Below, piece after piece: positions 10,346 to 59,761 of a stretch of DNA of 64,000 nt; within the stretch, counting starts at the first letter, position 1, and each line of letters starts with the position of its first letter. This DNA comes from a phage. Below the pieces are notes generated by a model that saw nothing but the letters and a program-made list of their open reading frames with translations, was not told where the DNA came from and made no database searches. Location of the stretch: sequence record PZ166176.1. One strand, 5' to 3'. The position numbers and the translations under genes are program-made.

Positions 10346-10351
10346 AAAGTA

Positions 10352-10410: not shown

Positions 10411-10428
10411 CCGAAAAAGGTAAACATT

Positions 10429-10620: not shown

Positions 10621-10622
10621 TC

Positions 10623-10680: not shown

Positions 10681-10698
10681 GATAATGAGGAAAGTAAA

Positions 10699-10998
10699 AT
10701 GGAAACTATCGCTATTATTACCGTAGAAAAACTGGTTGTTGGTGATGTATTCGCGTTAATGGTGCCTAACAGTAGCAAGCTGGGCGCTTATGAAGTGATG
10801 GATCATAAAAATGAATCATTTGGCGACGGTTGCACAATGGCGGTAAAATCTTTAAAGGATGGAATCATCCGTCAAGCTAATTGGCACAAAGGAAATCAAG
10901 TCGGATTAATATCAGCTAATTTCTTGCCAGAAGAGCAAACGTTAGACCAACTATCAGGCGGTAAGACGTTAGCCGAACTACTGGAAACAGCGATCTAA
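10699..10998 (+). CDS. hypothetical early protein (99 aa)
   Basis: ORF with SD gaggaaag. Confidence 0.65.
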   Translation: METIAIITVEKLVVGDVFALMVPNSSKLGAYEVMDHKNESFGDGCTMAVKSLKDGIIRQANWHKGNQVGLISANFLPEEQTLDQLSGGKTLAELLETAI

Positions 10999-11042
10999 TC
11001 AACAAAGGGGCGGCAACGCCCCACATCAGAAAGGAAAAGATT

Positions 11043-11279
11043 ATGAGTATTGCAACAGTATTAACCGCCGTTAAAACCGCTGAATCATCCGGCTTGCATG
11101 TTGAGCTTATAGATCAACCAGGTGGCGATCTCCTTGTCCAGGTTTACCCGCCGAAAGTAGGGGATGATCATTATTGGTGCTATTCCGATACGTTCGAACA
11201 AGTAGACACGAAAGCGATCACGGCTTTTATTTTAAAAGCTATTGAAGAAAATAATTTTCATTATAACATCAATCAATAA
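11043..11279 (+). CDS. hypothetical early protein (78 aa)
   Basis: ORF; preceded by a promoter-less hairpin ggggcggcaacgcccc. Confidence 0.6.
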   Translation: MSIATVLTAVKTAESSGLHVELIDQPGGDLLVQVYPPKVGDDHYWCYSDTFEQVDTKAITAFILKAIEENNFHYNINQ

Positions 11280-11334
11280 ACCATAAGCGCGGCGGTAACG
11301 CCCCATTAAACGCAATAGGAAGAGGCTAGAAAGC

Positions 11335-11619
11335 ATGAAAAAGATGATCGCAGTAGTTGCCCTGGTTGTTGGTATTAACGCGCCTGTAATGGCGAAAGAG
11401 TTGCCAGAATCCATCACGTTAACCGATATTAACGCAGTGAACCGGATCGGCGTTAATTATCGCCTATGCCTTGCCGCTAAAACTTTCCAGGACGGCACAA
11501 CAGAGTACTACGGATTCGAGGGTATCCGCTGCGGTGAGCTTGCACGCGACCTTAAGGAAGATCCAGACCTTGAGGCCATACCGATGACCGTAAACGGTAA
11601 AGCTTACGTAAGCCGCTAA
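11335..11619 (+). CDS. secreted small protein with predicted signal peptide (94 aa)
   Basis: N-terminus MKKMIAVVALVVGINAPVMA is signal-peptide-like; SD aggaagagg. Confidence 0.6.
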   Translation: MKKMIAVVALVVGINAPVMAKELPESITLTDINAVNRIGVNYRLCLAAKTFQDGTTEYYGFEGIRCGELARDLKEDPDLEAIPMTVNGKAYVSR

Positions 11620-11621
11620 CC

Positions 11622-11756
11622 ATGAGAAAGGTAATCATCACAATGGGGATCGTAGTAGCAACGCTGGCGCTTATCCCTTTCATGGTTGAACATGTGCTGA
11701 TTAATGTTGTCCTGGTAGTCAGTGACCTATTGGAAACGGTTGGCAACTGGTTTTAA
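11622..11756 (+). CDS. 44-aa hydrophobic micro-protein
   Basis: MRKVIITMGIVVATLALIPFMVEHVLINVVLVVSDLLETVGNWF; followed by a terminator. Confidence 0.45.
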   Translation: MRKVIITMGIVVATLALIPFMVEHVLINVVLVVSDLLETVGNWF

Positions 11757-11765
11757 GATAAATAA

Positions 11766-11793
11766 ACAGGGCTTGTTTTTGTCCTGTTTTTTG
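11766..11793 (+). terminator. rho-independent terminator
   Basis: acagggcttgtttttgtcctgt plus tttttt. Confidence 0.7.
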
Positions 11794-11932
11794 TTATACT
11801 TATTGAACGGGCGGCACCTGGGAGCAGGGGGAAGATAATCACCGGACGACCCCGCTATATATTGATAGCTAACATCTATCAAACAACAAAACATCAAAGA
11901 GATAAACTATCAAATCTTTACAATCCTACCTA

Positions 11933-11991
11933 TTGACACCGGATCACGCTTACATTATCATTTATCACGTAGGGCGGGAATGTTTCCCGCC
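11933..11991 (+). promoter_or_regulatory. PeSL-like cassette
   Basis: TTGACA 11933-11938, hairpin gtagggcgggaatgtttcccgcc. Confidence 0.7.
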
Positions 11992-12009
11992 TGATTTAGG
12001 AGTTATATC

Positions 12010-13249: not shown

Positions 13250-13264
13250 TTGACAACAAAACAA

Positions 13265-13291
13265 GGGGCGCACCAAGCGCCCTTTCTTTTT
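13265..13291 (+). terminator. rho-independent terminator (GGGCGCACCAAGCGCCC family)
   Basis: gggcgcaccaagcgccc plus tttcttttt. Confidence 0.7.
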
Positions 13292-13498
13292 GCCCGAACA
13301 ATGTTGATAGCTTTCGCCTATGAAAAACCGACACAGAACAAAATTGAATAAATCGCGGTATCGAGCTAATCAACCATTAAACGAATAACCATACCTCCCA
13401 GGGTAACAGGCTGTTAGAGAGCCATTTATAGCGGTTAAAATCGATCAACAACCAACAACAAACCATCAAAAACACCCTTTTACCTCCTTTCTAGTGCA

Positions 13499-13516
13499 AT
13501 GATAACCATTATCATC
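13499..13516. promoter_or_regulatory. Fur-box-like palindrome
   Basis: aatgataaccattatcat. Confidence 0.4.
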
Positions 13517-14056
13517 TATCCATGTTTATCTATGCAATATAAGTGCATAACTATAATGTTGATAATAGTTCGCAACAACTAACTAACCAACAACCTAAAA
13601 CAATAAGCAAACTAATCATAATCAAAGGAATAATAGCAAGATGATTGATAACGACAAACAATCAAACCATGATGAATACTAAGCAAGATAACGATAACAC
13701 GACAAAACAACCAACTAACGAACAATAACAAACGAAACCATTAAAATAATAACTATTGCCATAATAGTGACTGAATGAAATCATTACAAAACGAATCATT
13801 CCCAGGATCATCATTAGCACGCTATGCCGGACACATAGCGAGCTAATAATAAGCCAACTACACCCCAACAATCATAACCATCGGTGATGGTTATTTCTTG
13901 TTACTGCGTAGCTTGCAATGATTGCAAGCGTAATGACGCTTACACTCATTGCGCTGGCTTATTATTAGCATTATATGTAATTACCAAGATCATAACATTA
14001 GCGCAATAACAATAATCATTGTAATGGTTACAATATGAAATCATTAGCATGGCAAT

Positions 14057-14212
14057 AATTATTGGGGGCAATGGGAGGATGATTATCATCATTCCGATAC
14101 ATTGCACACTATGCACATAATAGAATAAAAGTCAATAATTTTGGGGGCGAATACTATCGCGTAGCGATATGTTGAGCACTAAGAAAAGAGATAAACCTTA
14201 ATCATGGGGGCG
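14057..14212. repeat. three direct repeats of a TGGGGGC core
   Basis: attattgggggcaatggg (14057), aattttgggggcgaatac (14135), aatcatgggggcgtaaat (14198); a second direct repeat ATGTTGAGCA at 14165 and 14248. Confidence 0.5.
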
Positions 14213-14330
14213 TAAATATCCGAGGATTGCCAACGGCGATCCGGTAGGATGTTGAGCATCTTCTCTTAAACGTAAATAAAATCAGAAAATTCTTGATTTA
14301 TTATGGTTTTTATGTTAATAAATGTTTAAA

Positions 14331-14349
14331 TAATAATCATTCTCATATG
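14331..14349. promoter_or_regulatory. Fur-box-like palindrome
   Basis: taataatcattctcatatg. Confidence 0.4.
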
Positions 14350-14420
14350 AATAATAGTCTGCTTGTCATGAGCGGGATTAATTGACATTGTTCCGTCATA
14401 TGATGAAGTTGCCAAGCCAT

Positions 14421-14451
14421 TGATAAATAAGTGTTTGTGTGATTTATAATC
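14421..14451 (+). promoter_or_regulatory. sigma70-like promoter (TTGATA-N18-TATAAT)
   Basis: ttgataaataagtgtttgtgtgatttataat; candidate promoter for the block starting at 14868. Confidence 0.4.
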
Positions 14452-14507
14452 AAGTGGCCCACCTTGTCGCTATGTTGGCATGAGCCTTGCATAAGTCATT
14501 GAATACG

Positions 14508-14526
14508 AATGATAATTATTCTCATT
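14508..14526. promoter_or_regulatory. Fur-box-like palindrome
   Basis: aatgataattattctcatt, about 55 nt downstream of the candidate promoter. Confidence 0.45.
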
Positions 14527-14867
14527 CGCATGATATTTGGGAATTGTCGCTGCGTGGACCTGACGGCCCGAAAATTCGCGTTAAGCACTTCTTACGTATG
14601 CGCCATGATTTTTGCCATATCATATTGATTCTATTAGATATTCTTGCCGTGATTGCCATGAAACAGGGTGTCCCGAAATAATCTCTCCCCGTAGATATTT
14701 TGGGTTACTTTTTATACAAGAGTGGGGTGTCAAAAATAATCGGTATATATGGGATAATTGATAGGGAATACCAATGATAAATGAATTGTAATTGTCGAGG
14801 ATTGATCGTAGGATGTTGGTGATTGATGATTGCCATGAAAGATGGCTAACGATGAGAGGAGATTATC

Positions 14868-30988: not shown

Positions 30989-31031
30989 GCTAGAACCCAC
31001 CTAAATCGAACAGAGACGCTCTAAAATAGAA

Positions 31032-31060
31032 AAGGCACCCACTTGGGTGCCTTTGTTTTA
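31032..31060. terminator. bidirectional terminator at the convergence of plus and minus transcription
   Basis: aaggcacccacttgggtgcctt with T/A runs on both sides. Confidence 0.7.
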
Positions 31061-31330
31061 TTCTTCGTTAGATTGCGTCTCAGACGCGTTAAATTCGATT
31101 TCAGTACAACTTGCTAGGTAACTTATATTTTGCATCACTACAACTACAGGTGTTTGAAGTTTATCTTCTAACCCCGCAGCCACTTGAGCCAAGGCATTAT
31201 CAATATTTGATTTCCTAACGCCTGTTCCATGTCCTGTTGCCAAGTAAAGATTACCTTCCCCTTTTTGTGTAGCATTGGCAAAGTAGTAAACGTAATGTGC
31301 AAGGTAGTAATCACGGATTTCTTCAGTCAT
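31058..31330 (-). CDS. hypothetical protein (90 aa)
   Basis: SD aggagaat upstream on minus. Confidence 0.6.
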   Translation of the reverse strand: MTEEIRDYYLAHYVYYFANATQKGEGNLYLATGHGTGVRKSNIDNALAQVAAGLEDKLQTPVVVVMQNISYLASCTEIEFNASETQSNEE

Positions 31331-31337
31331 TTTATTC

Positions 31338-31366
31338 TCCTAATAAGAAAGGGGCCGAAGCCCCTT
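31338..31366 (-). terminator. UUCG-tetraloop GC hairpin with T-rich tail (terminator or attenuator after Sir2)
   Basis: Minus strand reads GGGGCTTCGGCCCC then tttcttatt. Confidence 0.5.
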
Positions 31367-31373
31367 GAGTGGT

Positions 31374-32189
31374 TTATTTGTTTAAGTGGTCTTCGACCAT
31401 TTTAATGAAACCTTCATTGCTGAAGGCTGTTGCAGCTTTTTCTCGGTAAACAAAAACTCCACGATCTTCATAGAGAAGTGTTTCTTCGTAATTAACTCCA
31501 GGGTTAACTACAACCATTTTTGTACCCATACTAAGTGCAGGAAATAATTCCCAATTAAAATTGATAACTTGGTTTGAACACCCTACTACTACAACCAAAT
31601 CTTGCATGGTCAAAGTATCGAACAAGTGAGCCATATCTGCATACAAAGGTGCAGCCTCACCAAAAAATACAACATTAGGCTTCACCCAGTTATAATCATC
31701 TATGTTTATACTATTGTAACCAATATCTACCAGTGTTTTGTAATCTCCAGGATGCATACGGTAAACTACTTCAGGAAGATATCCGTGCACGTGAATAACA
31801 GAATCTCTGTCTACACCTGCTCGCTCTAGTAGATCATCAACGTTTGTTGTCAAGTTTACTACTTGGTTAGGATATTCTTTAAACCATTTTGCTATTTGAA
31901 TATGTGCAGCATTAGGCTGTACATCTTTAAGTTCAACACGTCTTTTGTTATAAAATTCGTGTGTTTTGGCATACAAATCCATACCGTTCTCGTCTACACC
32001 ACCGACCACTGGAAGATCTGGAGATGTTCTAACACGATAACCTGCCTGGAAAGCTCCAATATCGCAGACCTCTTCTAAATCATATTCTTCCCATAAGGCA
32101 CGACCACTATCGGTGTCTGTTCGGAATGTTCTAATCCCACTATCTGCACTTAAACCTGCACCGCTTACAAAAATCACTCGTCTTGGCAT
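31374..32189 (-). CDS. Sir2-family protein (CobB-like NAD-dependent deacylase or NADase)
   Basis: VIFVSGAGLSADSGIRTFR, ALWEE, NLTTNVDDLLERAG, VIHVHG match sirtuin/CobB motifs; the Cys4 zinc-ribbon module appears absent. Confidence 0.8.
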   Translation of the reverse strand: MPRRVIFVSGAGLSADSGIRTFRTDTDSGRALWEEYDLEEVCDIGAFQAGYRVRTSPDLPVVGGVDENGMDLYAKTHEFYNKRRVELKDVQPNAAHIQIAKWFKEYPNQVVNLTTNVDDLLERAGVDRDSVIHVHGYLPEVVYRMHPGDYKTLVDIGYNSINIDDYNWVKPNVVFFGEAAPLYADMAHLFDTLTMQDLVVVVGCSNQVINFNWELFPALSMGTKMVVVNPGVNYEETLLYEDRGVFVYREKAATAFSNEGFIKMVEDHLNK

Positions 32190-32677
32190 TCTTCCTCCTC
32201 ATAATCATCATAATCTTCGTCATCCAAATCGTACACTTCGTCTTGAGAATAACTCACTTCAAAGTAAATATCAAACTCCGCAAACAAACGTAGAATGTTG
32301 GACATGCTATAATAATTATCGTAGGCAGATTCAGCTTCATAGTAAACATAAAGCAAATGGTTAGCCTTATCATCTTCCAAATATTTCCCGTCTGCATACG
32401 CATAGTCTGCATATGCTTTACCTGCATCTTCCACAAGAGAACGATCAAGCAGAGTAGGAAATGGTTTCTCTTTTTCTTTTAGTTTGCTCACCAACCAGTG
32501 TGCAATATTATGCCAATCTGCATCCTCTCCGCTGAAGCAGCTTGCGACTTCGCCAAACTTGGCATCTCCTAAGTCCCCGCTGATAGTGATCATGGTTGAA
32601 CTATTGTAACCACAAGTTTCGCAATTTGAACAACTGTTGTGCACATGAATTTCTACTTGAAACATATTTCCTCCCAT
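32174..32677 (-). CDS. hypothetical protein with strongly acidic C-terminal tail (167 aa)
   Basis: Tail VYDLDDEDYDDYEEEECQDE. Confidence 0.6.
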   Translation of the reverse strand: MGGNMFQVEIHVHNSCSNCETCGYNSSTMITISGDLGDAKFGEVASCFSGEDADWHNIAHWLVSKLKEKEKPFPTLLDRSLVEDAGKAYADYAYADGKYLEDDKANHLLYVYYEAESAYDNYYSMSNILRLFAEFDIYFEVSYSQDEVYDLDDEDYDDYEEEECQDE

Positions 32678-32723
32678 AAAAGAAAAGCCCCCTGAAACAG
32701 GAGGCTTTGTTCAGATGCTGGCA

Positions 32724-33377
32724 CTATACCAGACTTTGTAGGTATTTGTCAAGGGCTTCTTGATCGCCTTGACAAACATAGCAACGGAAGTCTTGAGCCG
32801 AAGGTTGTTTATTTTCATCCCAGTCCCAATAAACATTACCCTTATAACGTGAACCAGGAAACTCAAAAGAGGCTGTATGTGTAATGTATCCTGGGCCACC
32901 AGTGAAATCACAGAATGAGAATTGGGGGTATGCCGCCTTTACTGCCTCAATAAACCAAGCTTTACGATCTAAAGCTTCATTGATGCTATACGCATGTCTC
33001 TCCATTTCTTCCCACGTTTTCCAGACACTTCTCTCATCAGGAGAAAAGACAAGCCATTCTGGAAGGTATAGAGTGTCATAGTAATCATCATATTCGATCT
33101 CGGAGGCGCACGAAGCTGACTCCTCCAGTTTTGAGTAATCAAAAGCAGAATATACCCACCAACCATCTTCCAGTAACGCTTTGATAGGGACGAAGCCTTT
33201 ATCAGCATATTGATCGAATTGTTTGACACGGTGGCTTGTGCAGTCTTCAAACTCACATTCTAAACGATATGCACCTTTTCGACGAGCCTCAAGACCGTGT
33301 GTACTGAAAATAACAACACTTCCTTCACCATCATTACGATCTACTTGATAAGCAACCACTGGTTTTGAATTTGACAT
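32724..33377 (-). CDS. hypothetical protein (217 aa)
   Basis: ORF with SD. Confidence 0.65.
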   Translation of the reverse strand: MSNSKPVVAYQVDRNDGEGSVVIFSTHGLEARRKGAYRLECEFEDCTSHRVKQFDQYADKGFVPIKALLEDGWWVYSAFDYSKLEESASCASEIEYDDYYDTLYLPEWLVFSPDERSVWKTWEEMERHAYSINEALDRKAWFIEAVKAAYPQFSFCDFTGGPGYITHTASFEFPGSRYKGNVYWDWDENKQPSAQDFRCYVCQGDQEALDKYLQSLV

Positions 33378-34060
33378 TATTTCTCCTTATCTAGAAGATT
33401 GTTAGACAAAAACACTGCACGAGCAAAACCACGTGCGGTTAGTGATCTAAGTTGTTTTGTTTTTGCACTAGCTCCACCTAAGCTTTTCCAACCCCAGAAG
33501 CAGCCTATATGATCTACTGGTTTCTTCACTGGTTGAACAAAACCATTGCCGTGCCAAATACAAGTTTTCTTTGTATACCCATCACGGGTAGGCATTTTAG
33601 GATGAAAGCTTCCTTCCTCTTCAAACAAATACCCACCATACTCATAAGGATCAAAGTAAAAATCGGGTTTACGCCATAAGGTTGAAAGTTTACCTACTGG
33701 GTTCTCAATCATCCAAGGAACATTATATTTGTTACCCAAAGCTTCCACTACACGAATATTAGCTAAAGCTTCATCCAATTCCTCTGTGCTGCGTTCGTGT
33801 TTGCTACCACTACCTGCTAACATAGTGCAAGGTGGAAATCCAAAAATAATATCGGGTTTAGGTATCCCATGATCTTCAGGGTTGAATGTAGAATCTATCC
33901 AGGCATTCACATAGGTTATGTTTGGGTGCTCCATCCTAACCTCGTATTTACCGTGATCCCCTTCATCAGCGTTTACACAAAAACACTTGTGACCTGCTTC
34001 GGCATAACGTAACACCATGATCCCAGATCCGTCAAACATAGACAAAACTGTTTTACTCAT
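33377..34060 (-). CDS. putative DNA (cytosine-5) methyltransferase, compact
   Basis: ATG at 34060 with SD ggagggg; motif I FDGSG, motif IV GFPPC, motif VI ENPVG; no obvious target-recognition domain. Confidence 0.55.
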   Translation of the reverse strand: MSKTVLSMFDGSGIMVLRYAEAGHKCFCVNADEGDHGKYEVRMEHPNITYVNAWIDSTFNPEDHGIPKPDIIFGFPPCTMLAGSGSKHERSTEELDEALANIRVVEALGNKYNVPWMIENPVGKLSTLWRKPDFYFDPYEYGGYLFEEEGSFHPKMPTRDGYTKKTCIWHGNGFVQPVKKPVDHIGCFWGWKSLGGASAKTKQLRSLTARGFARAVFLSNNLLDKEK

Positions 34061-34466
34061 TACCCCTCCATTCAAGACAAGCCATAACTTTACGCCAATC
34101 ACTTTCTGTAAGAAAAATCTCGTTTGCTTTCTTCCACAAATCTAAATCGTGAAGGGTTGGAATACGATATGTTAGTTCACAGAATCTATGCTCTTCTTCT
34201 GTAATATAACCAAAATGCAGAGCCACATCGTGAAACCAACACCAACCATGCATCTCTCGAACAACATGGTCATGTTGAGACATTATTTTATGCCGTAAAC
34301 CTAACCAACAAGGAACAGATACTTTAGTAGTCTTTAATCTGTGATCAACAGTATTAGAGTATTCAATAATAGCTGTCAGTTTCAATCGTGCTTTTTCTAA
34401 ATCCTCATGCGTCACTTTGAAATAACTTTCTGAAAGATATCCACACATATTAATAACCTCCTTCAA
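34053..34466 (-). CDS. hypothetical protein (137 aa)
   Basis: Overlap-coupled ORF. Confidence 0.6.
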   Translation of the reverse strand: MKEVINMCGYLSESYFKVTHEDLEKARLKLTAIIEYSNTVDHRLKTTKVSVPCWLGLRHKIMSQHDHVVREMHGWCWFHDVALHFGYITEEEHRFCELTYRIPTLHDLDLWKKANEIFLTESDWRKVMACLEWRGNE

Positions 34467-35391
34467 AAGGCTTTACTACATGTTGATTAGCTTTAAAACG
34501 TTCAACATAGTCGTTTTCGCCCATGTTTTCATATAGCTTAATAACAACATAAAAGTTTTCCCAAGCATATTCCCTAAACCAACCACTAGTGATGGACGTG
34601 CAGACTTTAGATAAAGCCATTATAAAACTTTGCTTAGGGGTTGGACCTCCGATCTCTCCACCGAAAGGAATTTGTGAACGTTCCAAAGCCAAAACACACG
34701 CTTCTTCATAAACACCTAACAGGCGCACATGTTTTGGTTGAGCAAAAAACTTTTCTTTGCTGGTCATAACTTCACTTCCATCTTTCATATAAGATTTATA
34801 TGCCGGAGCATCCATTACCGCGATTGCTTCATGGATAGAATCATGATCATAAACATACGGAACCTCATCACCTTTAAAAAAGTCTTTACTTTTTACGTTT
34901 AAGTTCGGATGAGAGTAAGTGTATGTTTCTTTCTCACGCAACTCATAAATACTCTTAAGATTTTCTGGGATCTTTGCGCCCAGTGACCGCATGAAATGAA
35001 TATCTTTCATAGTTTTAAAGAAGTGAGGACTATCCTTTTTAAAACGATGACTCATTTTAAGAAGGTAGAGCACATCTAAAGGAGCAACAACATGTCCAGC
35101 GTAAGTTCGACGAACATCATCAGAATCTTCACAATAACTAATCAAAGCTTCTGTGCTATCTCCTTGAGAAGCAATATCGTATTCCAAATGTGCACCAGCT
35201 ATCATTTTGACATGGCCTTTGTTTCCTTTACGTTCTACAAGTTCAACAAACTCATCTTGAGAGAACATTTTTGATAATTCTTCCCACTCTTGTTCTGTAC
35301 ACAGGTAATCTAAATCTACACAAGGGCGATACAAGTCTTTTCCCATATCCATAGCATGAATTTGTAATGCACGGCTACCAATTAACACCAT
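34450..35391 (-). CDS. hypothetical protein, possible minimal nucleotidyltransferase fold (313 aa)
   Basis: N-terminal LIGSRALQ...CVDLDYL resembles a GS...DxD nucleotidyltransferase motif; weak. Confidence 0.6.
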   Translation of the reverse strand: MVLIGSRALQIHAMDMGKDLYRPCVDLDYLCTEQEWEELSKMFSQDEFVELVERKGNKGHVKMIAGAHLEYDIASQGDSTEALISYCEDSDDVRRTYAGHVVAPLDVLYLLKMSHRFKKDSPHFFKTMKDIHFMRSLGAKIPENLKSIYELREKETYTYSHPNLNVKSKDFFKGDEVPYVYDHDSIHEAIAVMDAPAYKSYMKDGSEVMTSKEKFFAQPKHVRLLGVYEEACVLALERSQIPFGGEIGGPTPKQSFIMALSKVCTSITSGWFREYAWENFYVVIKLYENMGENDYVERFKANQHVVKPFEGGY

Positions 35392-35421
35392 AATATTTCT
35401 CCTCTATTGGTTGATAGGTTA

Positions 35422-35474
35422 AGTTTATCAAGCTTCCAGATTCCTGTCAATAAAAAACCCGCCGAAGCGGGTTA
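35422..35474 (-). promoter_or_regulatory. minus-strand terminator plus promoter unit
   Basis: Minus strand: aacccgcttcggcgggtt plus ttttttatt, then TTGACA-N17-TAAACT. Confidence 0.55.
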
Positions 35475-35481
35475 TTATTTA

Positions 35482-35754
35482 CTAACACATTGAGGAAGAA
35501 GAGATCCAAACACCTCTTGTGGTTAAACCATTTTCATCCAACTCTACACCATAATCTTCACAAATGAAATCAATATAGTGATCTGCGGCTGGCGTTCCTG
35601 TAGGGTAATAAGTTTCTCCGTTACCGTAGTCACCTATCCAAGCTTGTTCCTGAAACTGTTCACAAAGTTCTTCAATCTCCTTACGAAACTTTCTTTGTGC
35701 TTGTTCCATCTCTTTAACTTTCTTTTTTATCAGCAGTTCGCCTTCAGACTCCAC
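35482..35754 (-). CDS. small paralog with C-terminal W-x-SS-x-C motif, member 1
   Basis: Ends GVWISSSSMC; coiled-coil-like N-terminus. Confidence 0.6.
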   Translation of the reverse strand: MESEGELLIKKKVKEMEQAQRKFRKEIEELCEQFQEQAWIGDYGNGETYYPTGTPAADHYIDFICEDYGVELDENGLTTRGVWISSSSMC

Positions 35755-35763
35755 AATCTCTCC

Positions 35764-35982
35764 TTAACAGCTACTACTGTGCCAAACGCCTTGAGAATTA
35801 ACGACGAAACCATCATCACCTTCACCATAACAAGAAGAGGATTGCCAATCTTCAAAACAGATTGCGTCATTTTCTAAACTAAGACCAAAACCAGCATCTT
35901 CAGCTTCTTTTGTAAGTTCGTCCACTAAAGCCATAATAGCTTGGGCTTTTTCAGTTAATTCTTCAACATTACGATCACTCAT
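35764..35982 (-). CDS. small paralog with C-terminal W-x-SS-x-C motif, member 2
   Basis: Ends GVWHSSSC; internal ATG (MSDRNVEEL...) taken as start. Confidence 0.55.
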   Translation of the reverse strand: MSDRNVEELTEKAQAIMALVDELTKEAEDAGFGLSLENDAICFEDWQSSSCYGEGDDGFVVNSQGVWHSSSC

Positions 35983-36296
35983 TAGTATTTCTCCTCTGGT
36001 TGGAAAACTGAACGACAAGCCCACATACTAGCTTCTTTTAAATGTTTAATAGCACAACGGATTTGATCAATACGTTCGTATGTAAGATCTAATTCTTTTT
36101 CTGTGCCGTCAAAAGACCCATGATATGCTTCACAATACTCTTCCTCTAAAGCTTTGAAGATTAAACCTAAACGCTCTTCTGCATCTTTAATAGCGTTAAC
36201 CTTGCCAATCTTATCGTCAGTATGCGCCTTATAACCTTTGATATCTTCGATTCCCACTTTACCTCCTATTAACAACTTAAAGAAGATGGATGCCAA
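35982..36296 (-). CDS. hypothetical protein (104 aa)
   Basis: ORF. Confidence 0.6.
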   Translation of the reverse strand: MASIFFKLLIGGKVGIEDIKGYKAHTDDKIGKVNAIKDAEERLGLIFKALEEEYCEAYHGSFDGTEKELDLTYERIDQIRCAIKHLKEASMWACRSVFQPEEKY

Positions 36297-36466
36297 TTTG
36301 TTCCAGTATTCTCATTTTCATCTTCTGGATCATAATAGCCACCCATCCCATATTCAGGGGAGAAACGGAAACCTTTACCAGTCTCATCTGCTAACTGCTC
36401 TGCTTCCGCTAAAGCCTCATAAGCTGCTTTTACGGCTTCTTCTACTGTTTTAAACTTGGTCGTCAT
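36269..36466 (-). CDS. small paralog with C-terminal W-x-SS-x-C motif, member 3
   Basis: Ends NWHPSSLSC. Confidence 0.55.
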   Translation of the reverse strand: MTTKFKTVEEAVKAAYEALAEAEQLADETGKGFRFSPEYGMGGYYDPEDENENTGTNWHPSSLSC

Positions 36467-36740
36467 AAAATTTCTCCTCTCCTAAAGACATGTTGACATG
36501 AAATGCACGATATGTAAATTCGTTGTCCGTTGTGTTTGAATAAAACTCAAATTGAACAACACCGTCTTGAGAAGACAGATACATGCCAATTTGAACTGTT
36601 CCTTCTGGTACCAGGTAAGCATACTCTGGACGTAGTGTTACATTGTAAAAATAAAGTTCCCCAACACCCATTTCATCCCAAGCTTCCCAAGCGGTAACGA
36701 AGTTACTTTCAAAACTTGTTACTGATCCGAACTCTGCCAT
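36450..36740 (-). CDS. hypothetical protein (96 aa)
   Basis: ORF. Confidence 0.6.
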   Translation of the reverse strand: MAEFGSVTSFESNFVTAWEAWDEMGVGELYFYNVTLRPEYAYLVPEGTVQIGMYLSSQDGVVQFEFYSNTTDNEFTYRAFHVNMSLGEEKFYDDQV

Positions 36741-37231
36741 AAAACCTCCTCAATCTTGTAGTTTGACTCCATCTCCAACACATTTCCACGAACGTCTCTC
36801 CGAAGAAAGGCATAAGCTTTATTAGGTATTGTAGACTCATATTTAACCATATCTGGTACAGCAAAAGATACTACTACTCCTGCTGGGCTTCTGTCAAGAG
36901 CCTTATTAATATTTCTAAGGATATCGTTAGCCAAGATTTCTGCCAATTCTCCAAGAACGGTTTCGGTTATATCTTTATATCCCATTAAGTATTTGTTGAT
37001 ATCTTTCATCTCTGTATTGTTCAGAGTATAATCCAAAGGATAGAAATTCAAAGCGGAGTCACTTTTATGTGTCCACATGAAATGCACCCGATCCGAGCAG
37101 AATCGTAACCCTCTTTGAAGAATATCTTCTACAACAGGCAGAATTTCTTTTGTCACATCATTAACCATGTTGTAATCTAAGATTTCTGCCAAGTTTGTTC
37201 TTTGTTCACCACGTTTACGTTTAGGAATCAC
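36719..37231 (-). CDS. hypothetical protein (170 aa)
   Basis: ORF. Confidence 0.6.
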   Translation of the reverse strand: MIPKRKRGEQRTNLAEILDYNMVNDVTKEILPVVEDILQRGLRFCSDRVHFMWTHKSDSALNFYPLDYTLNNTEMKDINKYLMGYKDITETVLGELAEILANDILRNINKALDRSPAGVVVSFAVPDMVKYESTIPNKAYAFLRRDVRGNVLEMESNYKIEEVLWQSSDQ

Positions 37232-37802
37232 TTGTTATTGCCCTCATTACCAAAGGTCGTAGAAAATCGTAAATCTCTTGTTTTGTTTTCCCACGAATGT
37301 TTAAACAAGGAACATTATTGGCTTTAGCTATCTTCCAAGCCGTAGCTGTTCCACCTTTTGCATCTCCATGTTTATCAGTATTAGCACAAGCCAACAAGAA
37401 ACATGATGGAGCAGGATTCTCCAAATCTCTACCTAACACTTGATGCACATTACGTTGGTGCAATTTTCTAGCACCCTGCTTAAGCTTTTCATAGGCTGGG
37501 TGAACATCTTTGATCCATTGCACAGAAATAGCATAGTTCATTGTATCTGGTTTTGCAAGAACAATAACATCCCCTGGAATCTGATTACCTTTGAAATTTT
37601 CCCAAGGAACATAAATCTCCTTGTTAGTAGGATTTTCAGACTCTTGGACACCTGTTTCAAAAGCAGAATCACTACCCTCTGCCTTCCCAGACCTTAATTT
37701 AAACCCAAGGTTTGAAAGCCATTTCCCTATGCCTACCATCAAAGCCCACTCTTCTTCGGATATGTCTCTACTTCCAACTCCCGTATAGAACAGTTCTGCC
37801 AT
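37221..37802 (-). CDS. possible SLOG/DprA-LOG-like Rossmann-fold protein
   Basis: ATG at 37802 with SD gaggtga; motifs YTGVGSRD and RSGKAEGSDSAFETG resemble the GxGxR / SGGAxGxD signature; weak. Confidence 0.4.
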   Translation of the reverse strand: MAELFYTGVGSRDISEEEWALMVGIGKWLSNLGFKLRSGKAEGSDSAFETGVQESENPTNKEIYVPWENFKGNQIPGDVIVLAKPDTMNYAISVQWIKDVHPAYEKLKQGARKLHQRNVHQVLGRDLENPAPSCFLLACANTDKHGDAKGGTATAWKIAKANNVPCLNIRGKTKQEIYDFLRPLVMRAITSDS

Positions 37803-37809
37803 AATCACC

Positions 37810-38118
37810 TCAACAAGTAATTTCAAAAGGTGTATAGGGTTCCGTATTTCTCATGATCCAAGGACTGCTAGGATTGCTCGGATCATAAGGGCCAAAAGGT
37901 TTTATGGTAGGTTGTGTTTCTTTCTTCTGAATCTCTTCAAAAATACGACGAAGTTCAGAATATTCTTGATCCACCATAAGATTCGGTGCATCTGATTCTA
38001 CAGCTTGCAGGTTATCTTCCTTAAGAACAATCTCACGAACAAGATTAACATCTTCTGTTTCTAAGATAACTTCTTTACGGATATTGCCTACACTTTGAAT
38101 AATTGTAATCTTATACAT
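37810..38118 (-). CDS. hypothetical protein (102 aa)
   Basis: ORF. Confidence 0.6.
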   Translation of the reverse strand: MYKITIIQSVGNIRKEVILETEDVNLVREIVLKEDNLQAVESDAPNLMVDQEYSELRRIFEEIQKKETQPTIKPFGPYDPSNPSSPWIMRNTEPYTPFEITC

Positions 38119-38861
38119 TAATCCTCCTCAAGAGTTGAATAAAATTGAAGACCACCGTCCATATCGAAATAAGCAAATGTTAAGTTATTATTGAACACAG
38201 ATCCAGTATCCATATAAACACGATTCGCATTGATAATAGGTGTTTTTACATAAGAGTGTCCATGAAACACATAATCCACACCCATCACAACAGGAAGTTT
38301 CATTCCCTCTTTAGCACAATCCACCATATCTCTGTCCCACATAAGTGCTTCAGCAAAACGGTTTTCCTGTGTTTTTGTCATCTTCGAAGTGTATTCTGGA
38401 ATATCTGTTACAGGGAGATATTCCAAAGAAGACGGATACCCACCATGAATAAACGCAAGTTTCATGCCTCTGTAGTTAACAATGAGAACAACAGGTAAAT
38501 CTTCTGTCATCATTGCTAAGGCTGTAGCTCCTTCTTCACCACATTCTTCAAGGACCGTATATCCTCCATTTTGATACCAACACTCGAAGTAGCTACGATC
38601 TCCTTCCAGCATACCTTTAATCATCATGTCTTCATGATTTCCACGAATAGCGTAGCGATTGTGTTTACGAGTAAATTCTAAAACACAACGAAAGTTTTGC
38701 TTTCCACGGTCAGTAAGATCTCCTAGAGATACAACCACATCTGTATCTCGGATACCTAACTTTGCCTTTCCTTTTTCATACAAATTATAACAACCGTGTA
38801 GATCTCCAATTATAAAAAGATCTTGATCGCTTTTAACAGTAATTTCTCTGTGTATGATCAC
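38118..38861 (-). CDS. Ser/Thr protein phosphatase (calcineurin-like metallophosphoesterase)
   Basis: GDLHG, GDLTDRG, GNHE, GH motifs in canonical order. Confidence 0.8.
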   Translation of the reverse strand: MIIHREITVKSDQDLFIIGDLHGCYNLYEKGKAKLGIRDTDVVVSLGDLTDRGKQNFRCVLEFTRKHNRYAIRGNHEDMMIKGMLEGDRSYFECWYQNGGYTVLEECGEEGATALAMMTEDLPVVLIVNYRGMKLAFIHGGYPSSLEYLPVTDIPEYTSKMTKTQENRFAEALMWDRDMVDCAKEGMKLPVVMGVDYVFHGHSYVKTPIINANRVYMDTGSVFNNNLTFAYFDMDGGLQFYSTLEED

Positions 38862-39197: not shown

Positions 39198-39788
39198 TCA
39201 AATTATTAACGAAACCGCATGACTAAATCTTGGTTCAGATATAACCTCTGCTACAGTCACATATGTATCGTGCAGCCAAAAAGATTCTACTCTACAAACA
39301 CAAATACCGTTGATAATGAAATCTATACAGGCTTTATTATTTTCGCACACTTGTTGACTATAAACAACTCCTAAAGAGTCATAAAGTGATCTCACTGTTG
39401 CTACCATTTCATCTGTTTCGTCTTCCTGTGAAACAAAGAAAACGAATACAGACAAGTTATTAGCGAAAGTATTGCTATTCTCTACTTCAACCGACTTACA
39501 AGGTAAAAAGGAGTAATATTTACCGTTAGGTATCAATTTCGCCTCAACCTGGTTAAGTACGCTTTGAGATGGTTTTGTTACATAAAAAAGATTTTCTGTT
39601 GGGTTTTCAACATTACTCCTTACTATGCAACGAGTGGGGTTCGAAGGATCAAAAACATGATCGAAATCGACACACACAGGTAAGTTAACAACTTTAAACT
39701 TTTTGCTAAGAATGCTTACTGCTGTAAAAATCAAACCAGCATTTATTTTGCCAGTGAAAGTTGAACGCATAACTACTCCTCGGATCAT
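39198..39788 (-). CDS. hypothetical protein (196 aa)
   Basis: ORF. Confidence 0.6.
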   Translation of the reverse strand: MIRGVVMRSTFTGKINAGLIFTAVSILSKKFKVVNLPVCVDFDHVFDPSNPTRCIVRSNVENPTENLFYVTKPSQSVLNQVEAKLIPNGKYYSFLPCKSVEVENSNTFANNLSVFVFFVSQEDETDEMVATVRSLYDSLGVVYSQQVCENNKACIDFIINGICVCRVESFWLHDTYVTVAEVISEPRFSHAVSLII

Positions 39789-40476: not shown

Positions 40477-40986
40477 TTAAACAAAATAAAATGGTTGAGA
40501 GAGGCCCAAACGATTCTTTGGGTCGTATACATACCAAGCGTATGCTGTCTTATCTGTTCCACCTGCAACAAACGAAGGCCGTTCTGAAAGGACTATAAGG
40601 TTTGTTGGTGGATTCTTTTGATGGAACTCTCGTCGTTTCTTTGACTCCAAGAAGCCCAACCGAAGAAGATAAATACAAACATCCGCCTCTTTTAAGCTCT
40701 TTTCCAAGAACTCCATTGCTAACTTAAATGGAGGATTTGTGATTATAATGTCGGGACGATTTTCCCATTCATGACTAAAATAATCTTTACCTTCTTCAAG
40801 TTCGCAATATTCTGAACCTTCAGGAAAATGGCGATAAATCGCTTCAGCTTCACCTCTGCAAGGTTCTGCAAAAACCCAACCTTCTTCCTTTAGATTTTTG
40901 AAATCTATAACACTAAACAAACTATTGATTGCTTTTTGCGGTGTCGGATAATAATCGCTCGTTGGGCGATCATAATCTAATGCCAT
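40477..40986 (-). CDS. putative phage Dam-type DNA N6-adenine methyltransferase
   Basis: YYPTP, EPCRGE, DIIITNPPF (motif IV NPPF), ERPSF; size typical of the small phage Dam family. Confidence 0.6.
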   Translation of the reverse strand: MALDYDRPTSDYYPTPQKAINSLFSVIDFKNLKEEGWVFAEPCRGEAEAIYRHFPEGSEYCELEEGKDYFSHEWENRPDIIITNPPFKLAMEFLEKSLKEADVCIYLLRLGFLESKKRREFHQKNPPTNLIVLSERPSFVAGGTDKTAYAWYVYDPKNRLGLSQPFYFV

Positions 40987-44136: not shown

Positions 44137-44397
44137 TTACTCCGCAATTTGAGCCATGAGATCACGCAGTTCGGTAAAACCGCCTACGTATGTTACCTCC
44201 CCGTTCACTTCGGACAGAATTTGTGGAAATGTGCGTGGAGGAACTCCGGTAAGATCAACAACTGTTTTAGTCATTGATTCTAAATCATAGTCTTGATCAA
44301 GACTTAAATATTCAAACTGTTTATTGCGCATGGTTAATAGTTGTTTTGACATTTCACAAAATTGACAGTTAGGTTTACCAAAAATTACAAATTCCAT
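44137..44397 (-). CDS. glutaredoxin-like protein
   Basis: 86 aa, CQFC active-site motif near the N-terminus; sits with nrdAB. Confidence 0.7.
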   Translation of the reverse strand: MEFVIFGKPNCQFCEMSKQLLTMRNKQFEYLSLDQDYDLESMTKTVVDLTGVPPRTFPQILSEVNGEVTYVGGFTELRDLMAQIAE

Positions 44398-45239
44398 TAC
44401 CTCTCCTTATTAAGTAATACTGCTAAAGACTGTTCAATACCTTTATTTAAATCTGATTTTGTAAGATAGTGACTGGTTACTAGTTGTGACTTCACCGGAC
44501 GTGCTGCTGGAGCATTATAGGTTGAAGCTGATACCGCCGATATCTTAACAGGTTCTGGCATCTGTGTCAAGATCTTTTCCGCAAACTCCGCCCAAGAAAT
44601 AAGATGGCTTCCTGCAAAATGGTAAGTCTTAACAGACCTTGACCAACCTGTTTTTAATACTTCAAAAATAGCTTCTGCTAAATCTGGAGCATATGTTGGA
44701 CAAGAGAACTGATCAGCAACAATAATAAAATCACGTTGTCCATCATTATAGCGAGACAACATGGTTTTTAGAAAGTTATTTCCAAATTCGCTATATACCG
44801 AGGCTGTTCGAATAATATATGCATTTGGGTTAACTCCTCGCACCATTTTTTCACCAAGTTCTTTCGTATACCCATAATTGTTTATTGGGTTAGGTGTAGT
44901 ATCTTCAAAAATAGGATGAGAATAATTAAAAATATAGTCTGTGGAAATATGCACAAAATCGATTTTAAGTTTGCTGCACACTGCCGCAATATTTGCAGGT
45001 CCATACGCATTAACAGCCAAAGCAGTAGCAAAATCATGTTCTGCTTTATCTACAGCCGTATAAGCGGCGCAATTAATAACCCCATCTACATAATCTTCAA
45101 CAATAGCGTTTCGCACAGCTTCAAAATTTGTAATATCTACACGTTCTTTAGGATAAATTAAAGATACATTTGAAGGAACCACTTTACGTAAAGCTTGTCC
45201 CAGTTGTCCATTACCACCCAATACCAGATATGTTAGCAT
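44397..45239 (-). CDS. rmlD: dTDP-4-dehydrorhamnose reductase (RmlD)
   Basis: GGNGQLG, AAYTAVDKAE, STDYIF, YGYTK, GNNFLKTML, ADQFSCPT, ARPVKSQL align with E. coli RmlD blocks. Confidence 0.8.
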   Translation of the reverse strand: MLTYLVLGGNGQLGQALRKVVPSNVSLIYPKERVDITNFEAVRNAIVEDYVDGVINCAAYTAVDKAEHDFATALAVNAYGPANIAAVCSKLKIDFVHISTDYIFNYSHPIFEDTTPNPINNYGYTKELGEKMVRGVNPNAYIIRTASVYSEFGNNFLKTMLSRYNDGQRDFIIVADQFSCPTYAPDLAEAIFEVLKTGWSRSVKTYHFAGSHLISWAEFAEKILTQMPEPVKISAVSASTYNAPAARPVKSQLVTSHYLTKSDLNKGIEQSLAVLLNKER

Positions 45240-45799
45240 ACACCCTCGCTACGTAACTGTTGAAAAGATTTAGCCATTGCATCTTTTGTTGATAAAATAG
45301 GTTTAAAACCTTCGTCAAAAATCATATCGAAGCCCCAATCAATCCCTATATCAGGATCATCCCAACGTAAACTTTGTTCACTAGAAGGGTCGTATGGAGT
45401 TGTGCATTTGTATTCAAAGATCGCATCCATACTCAAAACTATGAAACCATGTGCCAAACCAGGAGGAAGCCAAAACTGCGTATGGTGTCGTGCACGAAGA
45501 ACAACACCGTCCCAAGCACCGTAAGTTGGGCTATCTTTACGTAAATCTACAGCGAAATCCAATACTTCCCCACTTACACAACGAACAAGCTTACCTTGCG
45601 GATTATTTGTTTGAAAATGCATTCCTCGCAAAACACCGAAGTTTGATTTAGACATATTATCTTGAACGAAAGTTTGTTTACCAATGATATCTTCGTATTT
45701 TTGTTCATTGTATGTTTCTAAAAAGAAACCACGATCATCTTTATAAACGTCTGGTTTGATAATTACCGCACCTTCAATTTTTGTTTTTTCTACTTTCAT
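45233..45799 (-). CDS. rmlC: dTDP-4-dehydrorhamnose 3,5-epimerase (RmlC)
   Basis: DDRGFFLET, RGMHFQ, QGKLVRCVSGEVLDFAVDLRKDSPTYG, PPGLAHGF, RWDDPDIGIDW align with RmlC. Confidence 0.85.
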   Translation of the reverse strand: MKVEKTKIEGAVIIKPDVYKDDRGFFLETYNEQKYEDIIGKQTFVQDNMSKSNFGVLRGMHFQTNNPQGKLVRCVSGEVLDFAVDLRKDSPTYGAWDGVVLRARHHTQFWLPPGLAHGFIVLSMDAIFEYKCTTPYDPSSEQSLRWDDPDIGIDWGFDMIFDEGFKPILSTKDAMAKSFQQLRSEGVC

Positions 45800-57515: not shown

Positions 57516-58241
57516 TTACTTATTAATAATACCTGCAATATTAGGTTTGACAAAGGTCGATGGTTTCATGATCTTACCTTTATCATCAAAGAACACATAC
57601 ACTTTCTGTTTTTCATTATAAACAGCATGAACACCAGTGTATGCCCCTTCTGGACGATTGGCATTTCGTTCTTCAATTGCAGCGCATTCTTGTGCAATGG
57701 CTGAATCGATATCTGAAGTTTTCCAAGTTTTCAGCAACTGTTGTTTAGTTGGATACTTGGAATCATTACTTTTCAATACCTCTTTAATAACTTTCTTTTC
57801 TGGATATTTTGAACGGATTAGAGTGTCACGAGACATACGCATAATACCAGCAGCCATTAGTGCCATTTGAACTGGCTCTGTAAATGTTTGTTCCAAAGCA
57901 TCAAAATCAGTATATACAGTTGGAGTAAAAACATCGCCTACAGCATAGTCCAAGAAATTCATCGTATGTTCTTCACCAAAGAACATGTAAGTAAGATAAC
58001 TGGATACTACAAAAATATCCGCTGCTGCATCCAAGAGTTCTACATGATCGTTTACTTTCGCGGCTGTTTCATACTCTTTAAGCTCTTCACGAACGAACCC
58101 GATTTGGGACATAAATAGCTCTTGAGTGAATTCAGGTTGTTCACCACCTCGTGCTTTGGCATTCCAATCAATCACGTGCTTTGCTGCATTTTTGAAAAAT
58201 TCAGTATCGAATTTAATATCTTTAAAAAAATTCTCGATCAT
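57516..58241 (-). CDS. protein with MazG/HisE-like NTP pyrophosphohydrolase N-terminal domain
   Basis: REELKEYETA and VELLDAAADIFVV resemble the paired-glutamate helices of all-alpha NTP-PPases; weak. Confidence 0.4.
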   Translation of the reverse strand: MIENFFKDIKFDTEFFKNAAKHVIDWNAKARGGEQPEFTQELFMSQIGFVREELKEYETAAKVNDHVELLDAAADIFVVSSYLTYMFFGEEHTMNFLDYAVGDVFTPTVYTDFDALEQTFTEPVQMALMAAGIMRMSRDTLIRSKYPEKKVIKEVLKSNDSKYPTKQQLLKTWKTSDIDSAIAQECAAIEERNANRPEGAYTGVHAVYNEKQKVYVFFDDKGKIMKPSTFVKPNIAGIINK

Positions 58242-58633: not shown

Positions 58634-59761
58634 TTATTCTGCTGGTTCCCAAGTGCCTGGGATCATTTCTCGAATACGAACACCAACAGGTTTTGTTGGA
58701 ATACCTTCATCTGAAAATTCTTCATACTCTATTTCAACAAACTGGTTAATCAAGGTAGAAGCATTCTCTGCTTTACGATAATTGATAGTCTCATGAGCAT
58801 CTTTACGCATTAAGAATTCGACTACTTTACCATTTTCCATCTCACCTGTCAACACTCCATCGCCATTTTTATCACTTTTTGAATTTGTTACTTTAACTTC
58901 AAGGGTATGGCGAGGCTTACGTTTAATAACGTCATAAGAACGTTTATCAAATTCGTAAACTCCGTGAGCATTACGATATACTACACCTTCAGCTTTCTCA
59001 AGTAAAGCTTTTTCATAGAAAGCATCAAACTGTTCTTGGTTTTCAATAAACTCTGTATGAACTACACAAATAAGCTCGTCAAGACCATAATCTTCAACTA
59101 CTGCCTTAAGAGCAGCAAGAACATCAACACGTTTTTCAAACGGTAGATCTGGAACTGGAATATCGTATACGTAATAGTTCAGCAAAGGTGTATTTGCATT
59201 ATGCTTCTTCCAGGCACTGTTAATTTGTTGTAGACTAAGGACACCTAACCCAGCAAACACTTCACCATCAAGAGGATGACCAACAACTTCACTAATAAAG
59301 TTTGGAATACCTTTCCAATGAGGTGGCAGGTTGTACACTTCCCCAGCTTTTGATAAACACTCCCCTTTCATGTTAATCATAGAACGCAACCCGTTCAGTT
59401 TGTACTGTGCATAACCAGGGAACACAACCCTTTCAGGATAATCTTTATAATCCTGGCATTTCATTGGTGTGGAAGGAACATGGTTTTCAGCTTCTTCTTT
59501 TGTTTTATAATAGCCATTCTTTAACTGTTTTGTCCATTTGGCAAAAGCTTCAAGTTCAGCTTGTTCTTCCGGTGTTGTTTCATTGGAACGACCAATGTTT
59601 TTTGCTTCTGCTGTATAAGATTTTTCTGTGATTTTTCCACCTACTCTTCCATGAGCTACAGTAACAACTGCACCATCTGTATACACTGTCCACTGTTTAA
59701 GTTTTCCTTTTGAATCTTTACCATACAGCGTTTGATTTGTTTGTTGCATTAGTCCTCCCAT
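58634..59761 (-). CDS. ATP-dependent nucleic-acid ligase (DNA/RNA ligase superfamily)
   Basis: Motif I KLNGLR (KxNGxR variant), motif III LDGEVF, motif IV EGVVYR, motif V DVIKRK. Confidence 0.6.
   Translation of the reverse strand: MGGLMQQTNQTLYGKDSKGKLKQWTVYTDGAVVTVAHGRVGGKITEKSYTAEAKNIGRSNETTPEEQAELEAFAKWTKQLKNGYYKTKEEAENHVPSTPMKCQDYKDYPERVVFPGYAQYKLNGLRSMINMKGECLSKAGEVYNLPPHWKGIPNFISEVVGHPLDGEVFAGLGVLSLQQINSAWKKHNANTPLLNYYVYDIPVPDLPFEKRVDVLAALKAVVEDYGLDELICVVHTEFIENQEQFDAFYEKALLEKAEGVVYRNAHGVYEFDKRSYDVIKRKPRHTLEVKVTNSKSDKNGDGVLTGEMENGKVVEFLMRKDAHETINYRKAENASTLINQFVEIEYEEFSDEGIPTKPVGVRIREMIPGTWEPAE

Follow-up and report, generated by a model that had tools for sequence, protein, structure and literature searches.

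What does a sirtuin do in a virulent phage, and do the enzymes encoded around it work together with it? These questions are raised by a 6.7-kb region (positions 31374 to 38118) of the 64,000-nucleotide stretch of phage DNA in sequence record PZ166176.1, referred to here as the window. At 98% identity along its entire length, the region matches more than 60 deposited Escherichia phages from the genus Phapecoctavirus (e.g., NC_052654.1), which are virulent myoviruses of the Stephanstirmvirinae with genomes of ∼150 kb. An initial annotation had called, in or close to this region, genes for a sirtuin (Sir2; 31374 to 32189), a compact C5-cytosine methyltransferase (C5-MTase; 33377 to 34060), a possible nucleotidyltransferase (NTase; 34450 to 35391), a possible SLOG protein (37221 to 37802), and a further methyltransferase (40477 to 40986), and had read the Sir2, NTase, and SLOG domains as those of NAD-based immunity turned to counter-defense or to the manipulation of NAD+ metabolism, with the methyltransferases as probably anti-restriction. 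The five genes lie where they had been placed, all on the − strand, and the domain calls were borne out, including those for the NTase and the SLOG protein, which had been graded as weak. However, the genes do not form a single NAD-centered system but are separate accessory enzymes, independently transcribed and scattered widely in phages. For the sirtuin itself we favor, with somewhat less than even confidence, a function as a lysine deacylase acting on acetyl or acidic acyl groups. The genes, the sirtuin clade, and its contexts have previously been catalogued or described computationally, and the public records of relatives already annotate Sir2 (as an NAD-dependent deacetylase), a DNA methyltransferase, a DprA-like recombination mediator, and a NinI-like phosphatase, while the NTase-like gene is listed as hypothetical. 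New here are the structural placement of DUF7277/DUF7275 in a MenT-like NTase fold, the evidence that bacterial CobB homologues commonly lack the zinc cysteines, the virus-restricted TTNVD motif, and the operon breaks. The analysis shows what the domains are, which residues are conserved, how the proteins fold, where the operons break, and how the families are distributed; substrates and physiological roles are inferred.

Profile, PDB, and alignment evidence places the 271-amino-acid sirtuin in a zinc-less phage clade which, judged by its sequences, is a virus-specific subfamily descended from proteobacterial CobB/SIRT5-type (class III) sirtuins. The only Pfam family that it matches is SIR2 (PF02146; E value, 1.3e-22), its match to PHROG 2162 has an E value of 8e-105, and its NCBIfam matches are CobB-type deacylase models. 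The best solved relative is Escherichia coli CobB (PDB 1s5p; E value, 1e-18), and identity to CobB-S is 32% over 213 amino acids (E value, 1e-25). Conservation of individual residues was scored over 18 diverse phage homologues. The NAD+-binding elements GAGxS (G10-A11-G12-x-S14; GAGLS in the window) and the cofactor loop F22-R23 are invariant across the clade, as are P92-N93-x-x-H96, N116, D118, the catalytic H135-G136, and the substrate loop K170-P171-N172-V173-x-F175-F176-x-E178 (FFGE), confirming the CobB-type NAD-binding and catalytic-histidine motifs noted in the initial annotation. Also invariant is F79-Y80-x-x-R83-R84, which reads FYNKRR in the window and aligns with FYNARR of CobB. In SIRT5 and CobB, the Y and R of this Y-x-x-R motif form the pocket for acidic acyl groups. 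The phage protein thus shares with CobB and SIRT5 the GAGxS motif, the FR loop, FYNxRR, PNxAH, the N and D of xQNxD, the catalytic HG, and the VxFFGE loop, but it differs from them in lacking the zinc cysteines, in carrying TTNVD instead of TQNID, in a variable insert of 25 to 30 amino acids at residues 48 to 72, and in an altered GTS..YPAA region. The Cys4 zinc ribbon, already noted as seemingly missing, did not reappear upon realignment: Cys118, Cys137, Cys139, and Cys140 of CobB are all substituted, no cysteine occurs over the 41 residues of the module, and none is conserved at this place in the phage clade. The Gln of TQNxD is replaced by Thr throughout the viral clade.

To place these two changes, the sirtuin was searched against 1.84 billion representative proteins, and the best 150 were classified by motif and by zinc cysteines. 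In this set, Thr at the Gln position of TQNID and the zinc-less state go together: 33 proteins with Thr are zinc-less and 7 have four or more cysteines, compared with 10 and 68, respectively, of those with Gln (Fisher's test, 8e-14, not corrected for phylogeny). A profile built from divergent zinc-less members was also run against GTDB genomes and IMG/VR. All 73 bacterial loci found in this way carry TQN[IV]D. Zero or one module cysteine was present in 49 of the 70 best scorable bacterial CobB-like loci (70 of the 73 could be scored), and these zinc-poor loci are ordinary chromosomal CobB-like genes from Bacteroidota, Marinobacter, Flavobacteriia, and others. In contrast, 110 viral loci (59 distinct sequences) but none of the 73 bacterial ones have the TTNVD form. 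Because the loss of zinc ligands is common among plain bacterial CobB homologues, it is uninformative about NADase activity, and the earlier argument that a missing zinc ribbon points to an immune-type NADase loses its footing. The virus-specific mark of the clade is rather the Q-to-T change from TQNID to TTNVD.

The retention of the F22-R23 cofactor loop, Y80-x-x-R83, H135, and the FFGE loop supports the deacylase reading. According to this reading, the lineage would have lost its zinc ligands and changed TQNID to TTNVD while keeping complete the machinery in which the cleavage of NAD+ is coupled to an attack by an oxygen of the substrate. The sirtuin would bind a macromolecular substrate and transfer ADP-ribose from NAD+ onto it, a step that we infer from its sequence, and acetyl or acidic acyl (succinyl- or malonyl-type) groups would be removed from lysines of host or phage proteins. 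The products would be nicotinamide and O-acyl-ADP-ribose, so that NAD+ would not merely be burned. Several observations weigh against this proposal. First, the protein is not a CobB equivalog, as every NCBIfam CobB model scores far under its cutoff (the best with 106.6 bits against a cutoff of 243). Second, the invariant Q-to-T change adjoins the catalytic Asn, and the GTS..YPAA region toward the C terminus is changed as well; either alteration could shift the chemistry. Third, the literature searched held no experimental work on phage sirtuins, the Phapecoctavirus Sir2, or DUF7275/DUF7277; the PhageMaP and NARP3 papers mention only the host Sir2-HerA. Finally, the recurrent neighbors of the clade are RNA-repair enzymes and the nicotinamide salvage enzyme NadV (NAMPT), with no protein-modification genes among them, which favors an RNA-related substrate.

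The neighborhoods were compared by fetching 56 viral contigs with sirtuin relatives and mapping all window proteins onto them. The sirtuin occurs in ∼990 deposited phage records, including T5-like, rV5-like, and phAPEC8-like phages, and among the 56 contigs it is found in three genomic contexts. In the Phapecoctavirus-like context (context A), the gene order is that of the window. In Vequintavirus/Mydovirus-like phages (context B), the sirtuin gene stands between a small P-loop kinase and a ligase, with an Rnl1-type RNA ligase, a calcineurin-like phosphoesterase, and MazG within 3 kb, and in T5-like phages (context C), it is located near PhoH and ribonucleotide reductase. When the open reading frames (ORFs) near TTNVD sirtuins were clustered without the use of labels, phosphoesterase (26 loci; median distance, 3 kb), ligase (26 loci; 1 kb), MazG, Rnl1 (21 loci; 2 kb), and kinase (22 loci; 0.65 kb) were the commonest close neighbors. 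This independently reproduces the observation of Iyer, Burroughs, Anantharaman, and Aravind (2022; PMC9503650, section 3.7.3), who described the clade in phages V5, Mydo, and SP15 beside tRNA ligase, kinase, MazG, and phosphoesterases and proposed for it a role in RNA repair like that of KptA/Tpt1. The window sirtuin is 47 to 61% identical to the sirtuins of these phage groups (Escherichia phage V5, Proteus phage Mydo, and Escherichia phage SP15), and the same three types of neighborhood were recovered. However, the Phapecoctavirus sirtuin has moved out of the RNA-repair cassette to the end of a gene block, where it is paired with hyp167, and the published KptA-like function is a prediction only.

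On that proposal, which we consider a serious but clearly less probable alternative to the deacylase, the sirtuin would transfer ADP-ribose from NAD+ onto the 2′-phosphate of a healed or sealed RNA break and so finish mending tRNAs that host anticodon nucleases have cut, with Y-x-x-R binding a phosphate and not a succinyl carboxylate. We rank an RNA acceptor second because of the recurrent linkage to RNA repair, both as published and as found by the unbiased clustering, and because of the virus-only Q-to-T change, which is consistent with a new specificity. In the divergent contig L177, moreover, an RlaP RNA-repair NTase is encoded 5.5 kb from the sirtuin; RlaP adds nucleotides to damaged RNA 3′ ends (PMC12776372). 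The cassette itself is present in the window on the − strand (60501 to 62391), where it consists of a polynucleotide-kinase-like P-loop protein (AAA_33; 60501 to 60905), a T4 Rnl1-like ligase (PF09511; 60906 to 61838), and a calcineurin-like phosphoesterase (61840 to 62391), followed downstream by an ATP-dependent ligase (58634 to 59761) and a MazG-like pyrophosphatase (57516 to 58241). Yet the window sirtuin is 28 kb away from it, in a small operon of its own, whereas in Vequintavirus/Mydovirus-type phages the orthologous sirtuin is directly beside the cassette. The T5-like phages, which are the largest group, have no ligase near the sirtuin, and the linkage seen in related myoviruses may reflect shared ancestry. 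In addition, healing of the T4 type by kinase/phosphatase and Rnl1 leaves no 2′-phosphate, so that a Tpt1-like step is not obviously needed, and no sirtuin is known to act on an RNA phosphate.

The other recurrent neighbor, NadV, bears on the original view that the sirtuin is a free NADase or NAD+ manipulator which, together with the NTase and SLOG proteins, counters Thoeris, DSR, or CBASS-type immunity. The gene for NadV directly precedes that of the sirtuin, in the same orientation, in contigs L177 (6057 to 8705) and L208, and lies 7 to 8 kb from it in context B loci. This link to NAD+ turnover speaks for an NADase, as do the absence of the zinc cysteines and the prediction by Iyer et al. 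(PMC9503650) that viral SLOG domains process ADP-ribose-derived signals. However, the adjacency of NadV suits a nicotinamide-releasing deacylase equally well, suggesting that nicotinamide release by the sirtuin is coupled to salvage, and zinc loss is frequent in ordinary bacterial CobB homologues. NadV is absent from the window and from the 129 kb of the closest reference genome, so that an NADase would starve the phage itself. Likeness to the defense sirtuins (ThsA, DSR1/2, SIR2-HerA, and SPARSA) is confined to the sirtuin fold, the missing zinc ribbon, and the use of NAD+. Searches with PADLOC and Pfam showed no similarity to defense-type Sir2 profiles, the only match among the PADLOC defense models being PDC-S65 (E value, 0.0066 over 37 residues), and the protein is a stand-alone one that in none of the 56 loci has a sensor or partner fused to it or encoded next to it (SLOG fusion, HerA, pAgo, or large C-terminal sensor). 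Unlike the defense sirtuins, it keeps the substrate loop of the acyl-lysine type and with it the conserved acceptor machinery. Because it matches canonical SIR2 and CobB/SIRT5 and not the PADLOC defense models, we classify the sirtuin, on its sequence, as not of the defense type. The sirtuin, NTase, and SLOG genes also do not co-occur across phages, and the SLOG protein is DprA-like and not a member of the YpsA-like clade discussed for cyclic ADP-ribose. With no match to defense models, the deacylase residues kept, and no conserved unit, NAD-based counter-defense appears improbable to us. Counter-defense in another sense is plausible, with the sirtuin acting in RNA repair and the SLOG protein sensing or degrading nucleotide signals.

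Whether the neighboring genes belong with the sirtuin can be judged from their transcription units and their distribution. The region makes up the distal end of the leftward early/middle block in a virulent Phapecoctavirus: according to GC skew and ORF orientation, a + strand early block and this − strand block meet at ∼31.0 kb, and the sirtuin gene is the penultimate gene of the − strand block. Terminators and promoters were predicted by consensus scans. Strong terminator-like hairpins were found on the − strand at 35473 to 35456, 32708 to 32684, and 31366 to 31349, and the first two are directly followed by good promoter-like sites. The first hairpin and its promoter-like site (35450 to 35422) mark the start of a unit comprising the NTase, hyp137, C5-MTase, and hyp217 genes. 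The second, with a promoter-like site at 32752 to 32723 (11/12 match, with TG), divides the NTase and C5-MTase genes from hyp167 and Sir2. The third, after Sir2, is followed by a small gene (31058 to 31330) and a bidirectional terminator (31031 to 31054), where both blocks converge; these three elements together span 31031 to 31366. At least three units are thus predicted, namely, NTase-hyp137-C5-MTase-hyp217, hyp167-Sir2, and an upstream unit with a phosphatase and the SLOG gene. The genes are therefore clustered physically, as had been stated, but not as a transcriptional unit. Nor are they one conserved unit, since the sirtuin occurs in three contexts and the NTase, SLOG, and C5-MTase families occur in unrelated neighborhoods in T4-like, T1-like, jumbo, and Pseudomonas phages, with host distributions that differ from that of the sirtuin and from one another.

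These breaks also bear on the idea that Sir2, hyp217, C5-MTase, and NTase form a co-operating module directed at tRNA, in which the MenT-like NTase would restore or shield the 3′ ends of tRNA, the C5-MTase, without a target-recognition domain, would act on tRNA like Dnmt2, and the sirtuin would finish end healing. The four genes stay together in four context A contigs (L040, L042, L049, and L052) in which an inversion parts them from the SLOG-phosphatase block, the structures nearest to the NTase are NTases of the tRNA acceptor end, and the C5-MTase-like protein has too few residues to hold a normal DNA target-recognition domain. However, two other context A contigs (L004 and L005) keep Sir2, hyp217, and SLOG while lacking NTase and C5-MTase, and in the window a terminator and promoter part Sir2 from the other three genes. 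The NTase and C5-MTase families are found alone in hundreds of other phages, nothing links the methyltransferase to RNA, and the window contains neither tRNA genes nor known RNA families (Rfam). We give such a module the lowest probability of the readings considered, a slim one.

The closest partner of the sirtuin gene in the window is hyp167 (PHROG 9509; 32174 to 32677, − strand), which encodes a protein with an N-terminal CxxCxxC motif and a very acidic C-terminal tail (DLDDEDYDDYEEEECQDE). As its stop overlaps the Sir2 start by 16 nucleotides, the two genes are probably co-transcribed and translationally coupled. The hyp167 protein could associate with the sirtuin, regulate it, or mimic DNA, and its gene adjoins Sir2 in 5 of the 56 related loci only. 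The most constant neighbor of Sir2 in Phapecoctavirus-like loci is hyp217 (PHROG 8514; 32724 to 33377, − strand), for which a sequence search against the PDB returned no match.

The NTase gene (34450 to 35391, − strand) encodes a Pol-β-fold nucleotidyltransferase domain (DUF7277) followed by a helical DUF7275 domain. Motif I (G5-S6), motif II (D26 and D28), and a third carboxylate (E70) are invariant in the family. We predicted the structures of the NTase and SLOG proteins and compared their folds against the PDB with Foldseek; the closest fold neighbors of the NTase are the MenT tRNA nucleotidyltransferases, so that the possible minimal NTase of the initial annotation is supported by both motifs and fold. 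Similarity to MenT1, MenT3, MenT4, and AbiEii (DUF1814) is one of fold and does not extend to the sequence: the DUF1814 profile, including its C-terminal motif IV, matched neither the NTase nor any of 41 relatives, and the family profile matched no PDB sequence. The DUF7275 domain is also larger than its counterpart in these proteins, has invariant His, Asp, and Arg residues of its own, and is found without the NTase head as well. Unlike for MenT and AbiEii, no antitoxin gene is evident beside the NTase, although hyp137 and the small ORFs were not analyzed for this. A relation to the RlaP-like NTase of contig L177 was rejected, as hhalign of the NTase family against that protein gave none. The NTase family is present in 736 phage records, including T4-like Mosigvirus and Acinetobacter, Aeromonas, and Pseudomonas phages. 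Based on its fold neighbors, the protein is probably an RNA 3′-end nucleotidyltransferase, which might either repair or block tRNAs.

Upstream of the NTase gene, three small tandem paralogues are encoded on the − strand (35482 to 35754, 35764 to 36024, and 36269 to 36466). They match the C-terminal part of PHROG 899 and share a W-x-S-S-(S)-x-C carboxy terminus, in which the terminal Cys motif may bind metal or undergo modification.

The SLOG gene (37221 to 37802, − strand) encodes a stand-alone DprA-like SLOG domain of 193 amino acids with the motifs GVGSR, RSGKAEGSD, and KGGTAT. The invariant residues G10, R12, R37-S38-G39, A41, G43, D45, and G150-G151-T152 align to the structures 3maj and 3uqz, and the Rossmannoid fold is supported by the predicted structure, which together substantiate what had been only a possible SLOG-like protein. 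The match to Pfam PF02481 is below threshold (12.7 bits against a gathering score of 29.6), while the best family member reaches an E value of 2.6e-7. A family-specific helical insert carries the invariant residues W67, H115, R117, N118, and Q121, which suggests a defined pocket. In contrast to DprA, the phage protein is a single domain without flanking SAM and winged-helix domains, and compared with DprA and the Moco carrier protein of the SLOG superfamily, it lacks the LOG catalytic PGGxGTxxE motif and has a helical insert of its own. The family occurs in 1,469 phage records. The window protein could be a DprA-like binder of single-stranded DNA, modulating RecA, or of a nucleotide ligand. 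In related loci, a distance of ∼1 kb always separates the SLOG gene from that of a metallophosphoesterase similar to λ-phosphatase and PrpA (38118 to 38861, − strand), which has the full set of DxH/GD/GNH/H/GH motifs. Farther along the − strand, the product of 39198 to 39788 (PHROG 4806), of which a second copy exists elsewhere in the genome, is labeled “histidyl tRNA synthetase” in RefSeq phage records. This label looks unreliable, as the protein has no support from Pfam, NCBIfam, or PDB sequences.

The compact C5-cytosine-methyltransferase-like protein (33377 to 34060, − strand; 227 amino acids, PHROG 757) agrees with its first assignment in that motif I (FDGSG), motif IV (PPC, with the catalytic C78), and motif VI (ENPV) are invariant in eight distinct relatives. 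A weak match to M.HaeIII extends from motif I through PPC, the Pfam model PF00145 did not match, and PADLOC matches cover the N-terminal 110 amino acids only (E value, 1e-4). The protein leaves no space for a target-recognition domain of the usual kind. This family was found in 1,497 phage records, many of them from T1-like phages. The second enzyme (40477 to 40986, − strand; 169 amino acids, PHROG 799) is a minimal amino-methyltransferase with weak matches to EcoRI_methylase (E value, 0.02) and the PADLOC model MTase_II (E value, 3.6e-4). It had been called Dam-like; the methyltransferase assignment stands, but the Dam type is imprecise because the motif is NPPF, and neither a DPPY motif nor a match to a MethyltransfD12-type profile was found. 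Both small methyltransferases are probably orphan DNA enzymes that methylate the phage's own DNA for self-protection. The suggested anti-restriction role would be a reasonable one.

Other features of the window were recorded alongside. In the + strand early region (2727 to 11992), at least 15 copies of a regulatory cassette are each located just upstream of a small early ORF. In every copy, a sigma-70-like promoter (TTGACA...TAnnnT) precedes a conserved GC-rich stem-loop (GGGCGGCAATGGTGCCGC or GGGCGGGAAnnnTTCCCGCC), recalling the promoter-early stem-loop cassettes of T4-type phages. Two stretches of ∼1.2 to 1.5 kb (13250 to 14600 and 700 to 1900) have no annotated gene in the reference and no tRNA or Rfam match, and one of them contains a 72-nucleotide AT-rich direct repeat (1384 to 1455 and 1522 to 1593). 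Genes for a nucleotide-sugar epimerase and a dTDP-4-dehydrorhamnose 3,5-epimerase are present at 44397 to 45799, while ∼1.9 kb with two further sugar-nucleotide genes of NC_052654.1 (88657 to 91935) is missing from the window. The closest reference has four glycosyltransferases elsewhere in its genome, and these enzymes may modify DNA or host surface glycans. Several “Campylobacter phage” records (∼135 to 137 kb, e.g., MG065647) carry nearly identical genes of rV5/phAPEC8-like E. coli phages and are probably mislabeled or contaminant.

The sirtuin clade is present in ∼990 deposited phage genomes, among them T5-like, rV5-like, and phAPEC8-like therapeutic candidates, and NAD+ is a central battleground between phages and bacteria. 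It is therefore important to know if such a sirtuin removes acyl groups from proteins, heals RNA, or consumes NAD+, and the answer bears both on phage biology and on the choice of therapeutic phages. This question is sharpened by the finding that zinc loss is not a marker of NADases, by the viral TTNVD signature, and by the MenT-like nucleotidyltransferase represented by DUF7277/DUF7275. A bolder idea, which we regard as unlikely, is that the zinc-less, virus-only TTNVD sirtuins have switched their acceptor from acyl-lysine to a nucleic-acid phosphate or another nonprotein group. They would then carry out NAD+-dependent RNA end healing and form, with a MenT-like NTase that restores the 3′ ends of tRNA, a tRNA-rescue toolkit of Phapecoctavirus. 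If true, this chemistry would be new for the sirtuin fold, and the toolkit would represent a new kind of phage counter-defense against host immunity that targets tRNA.

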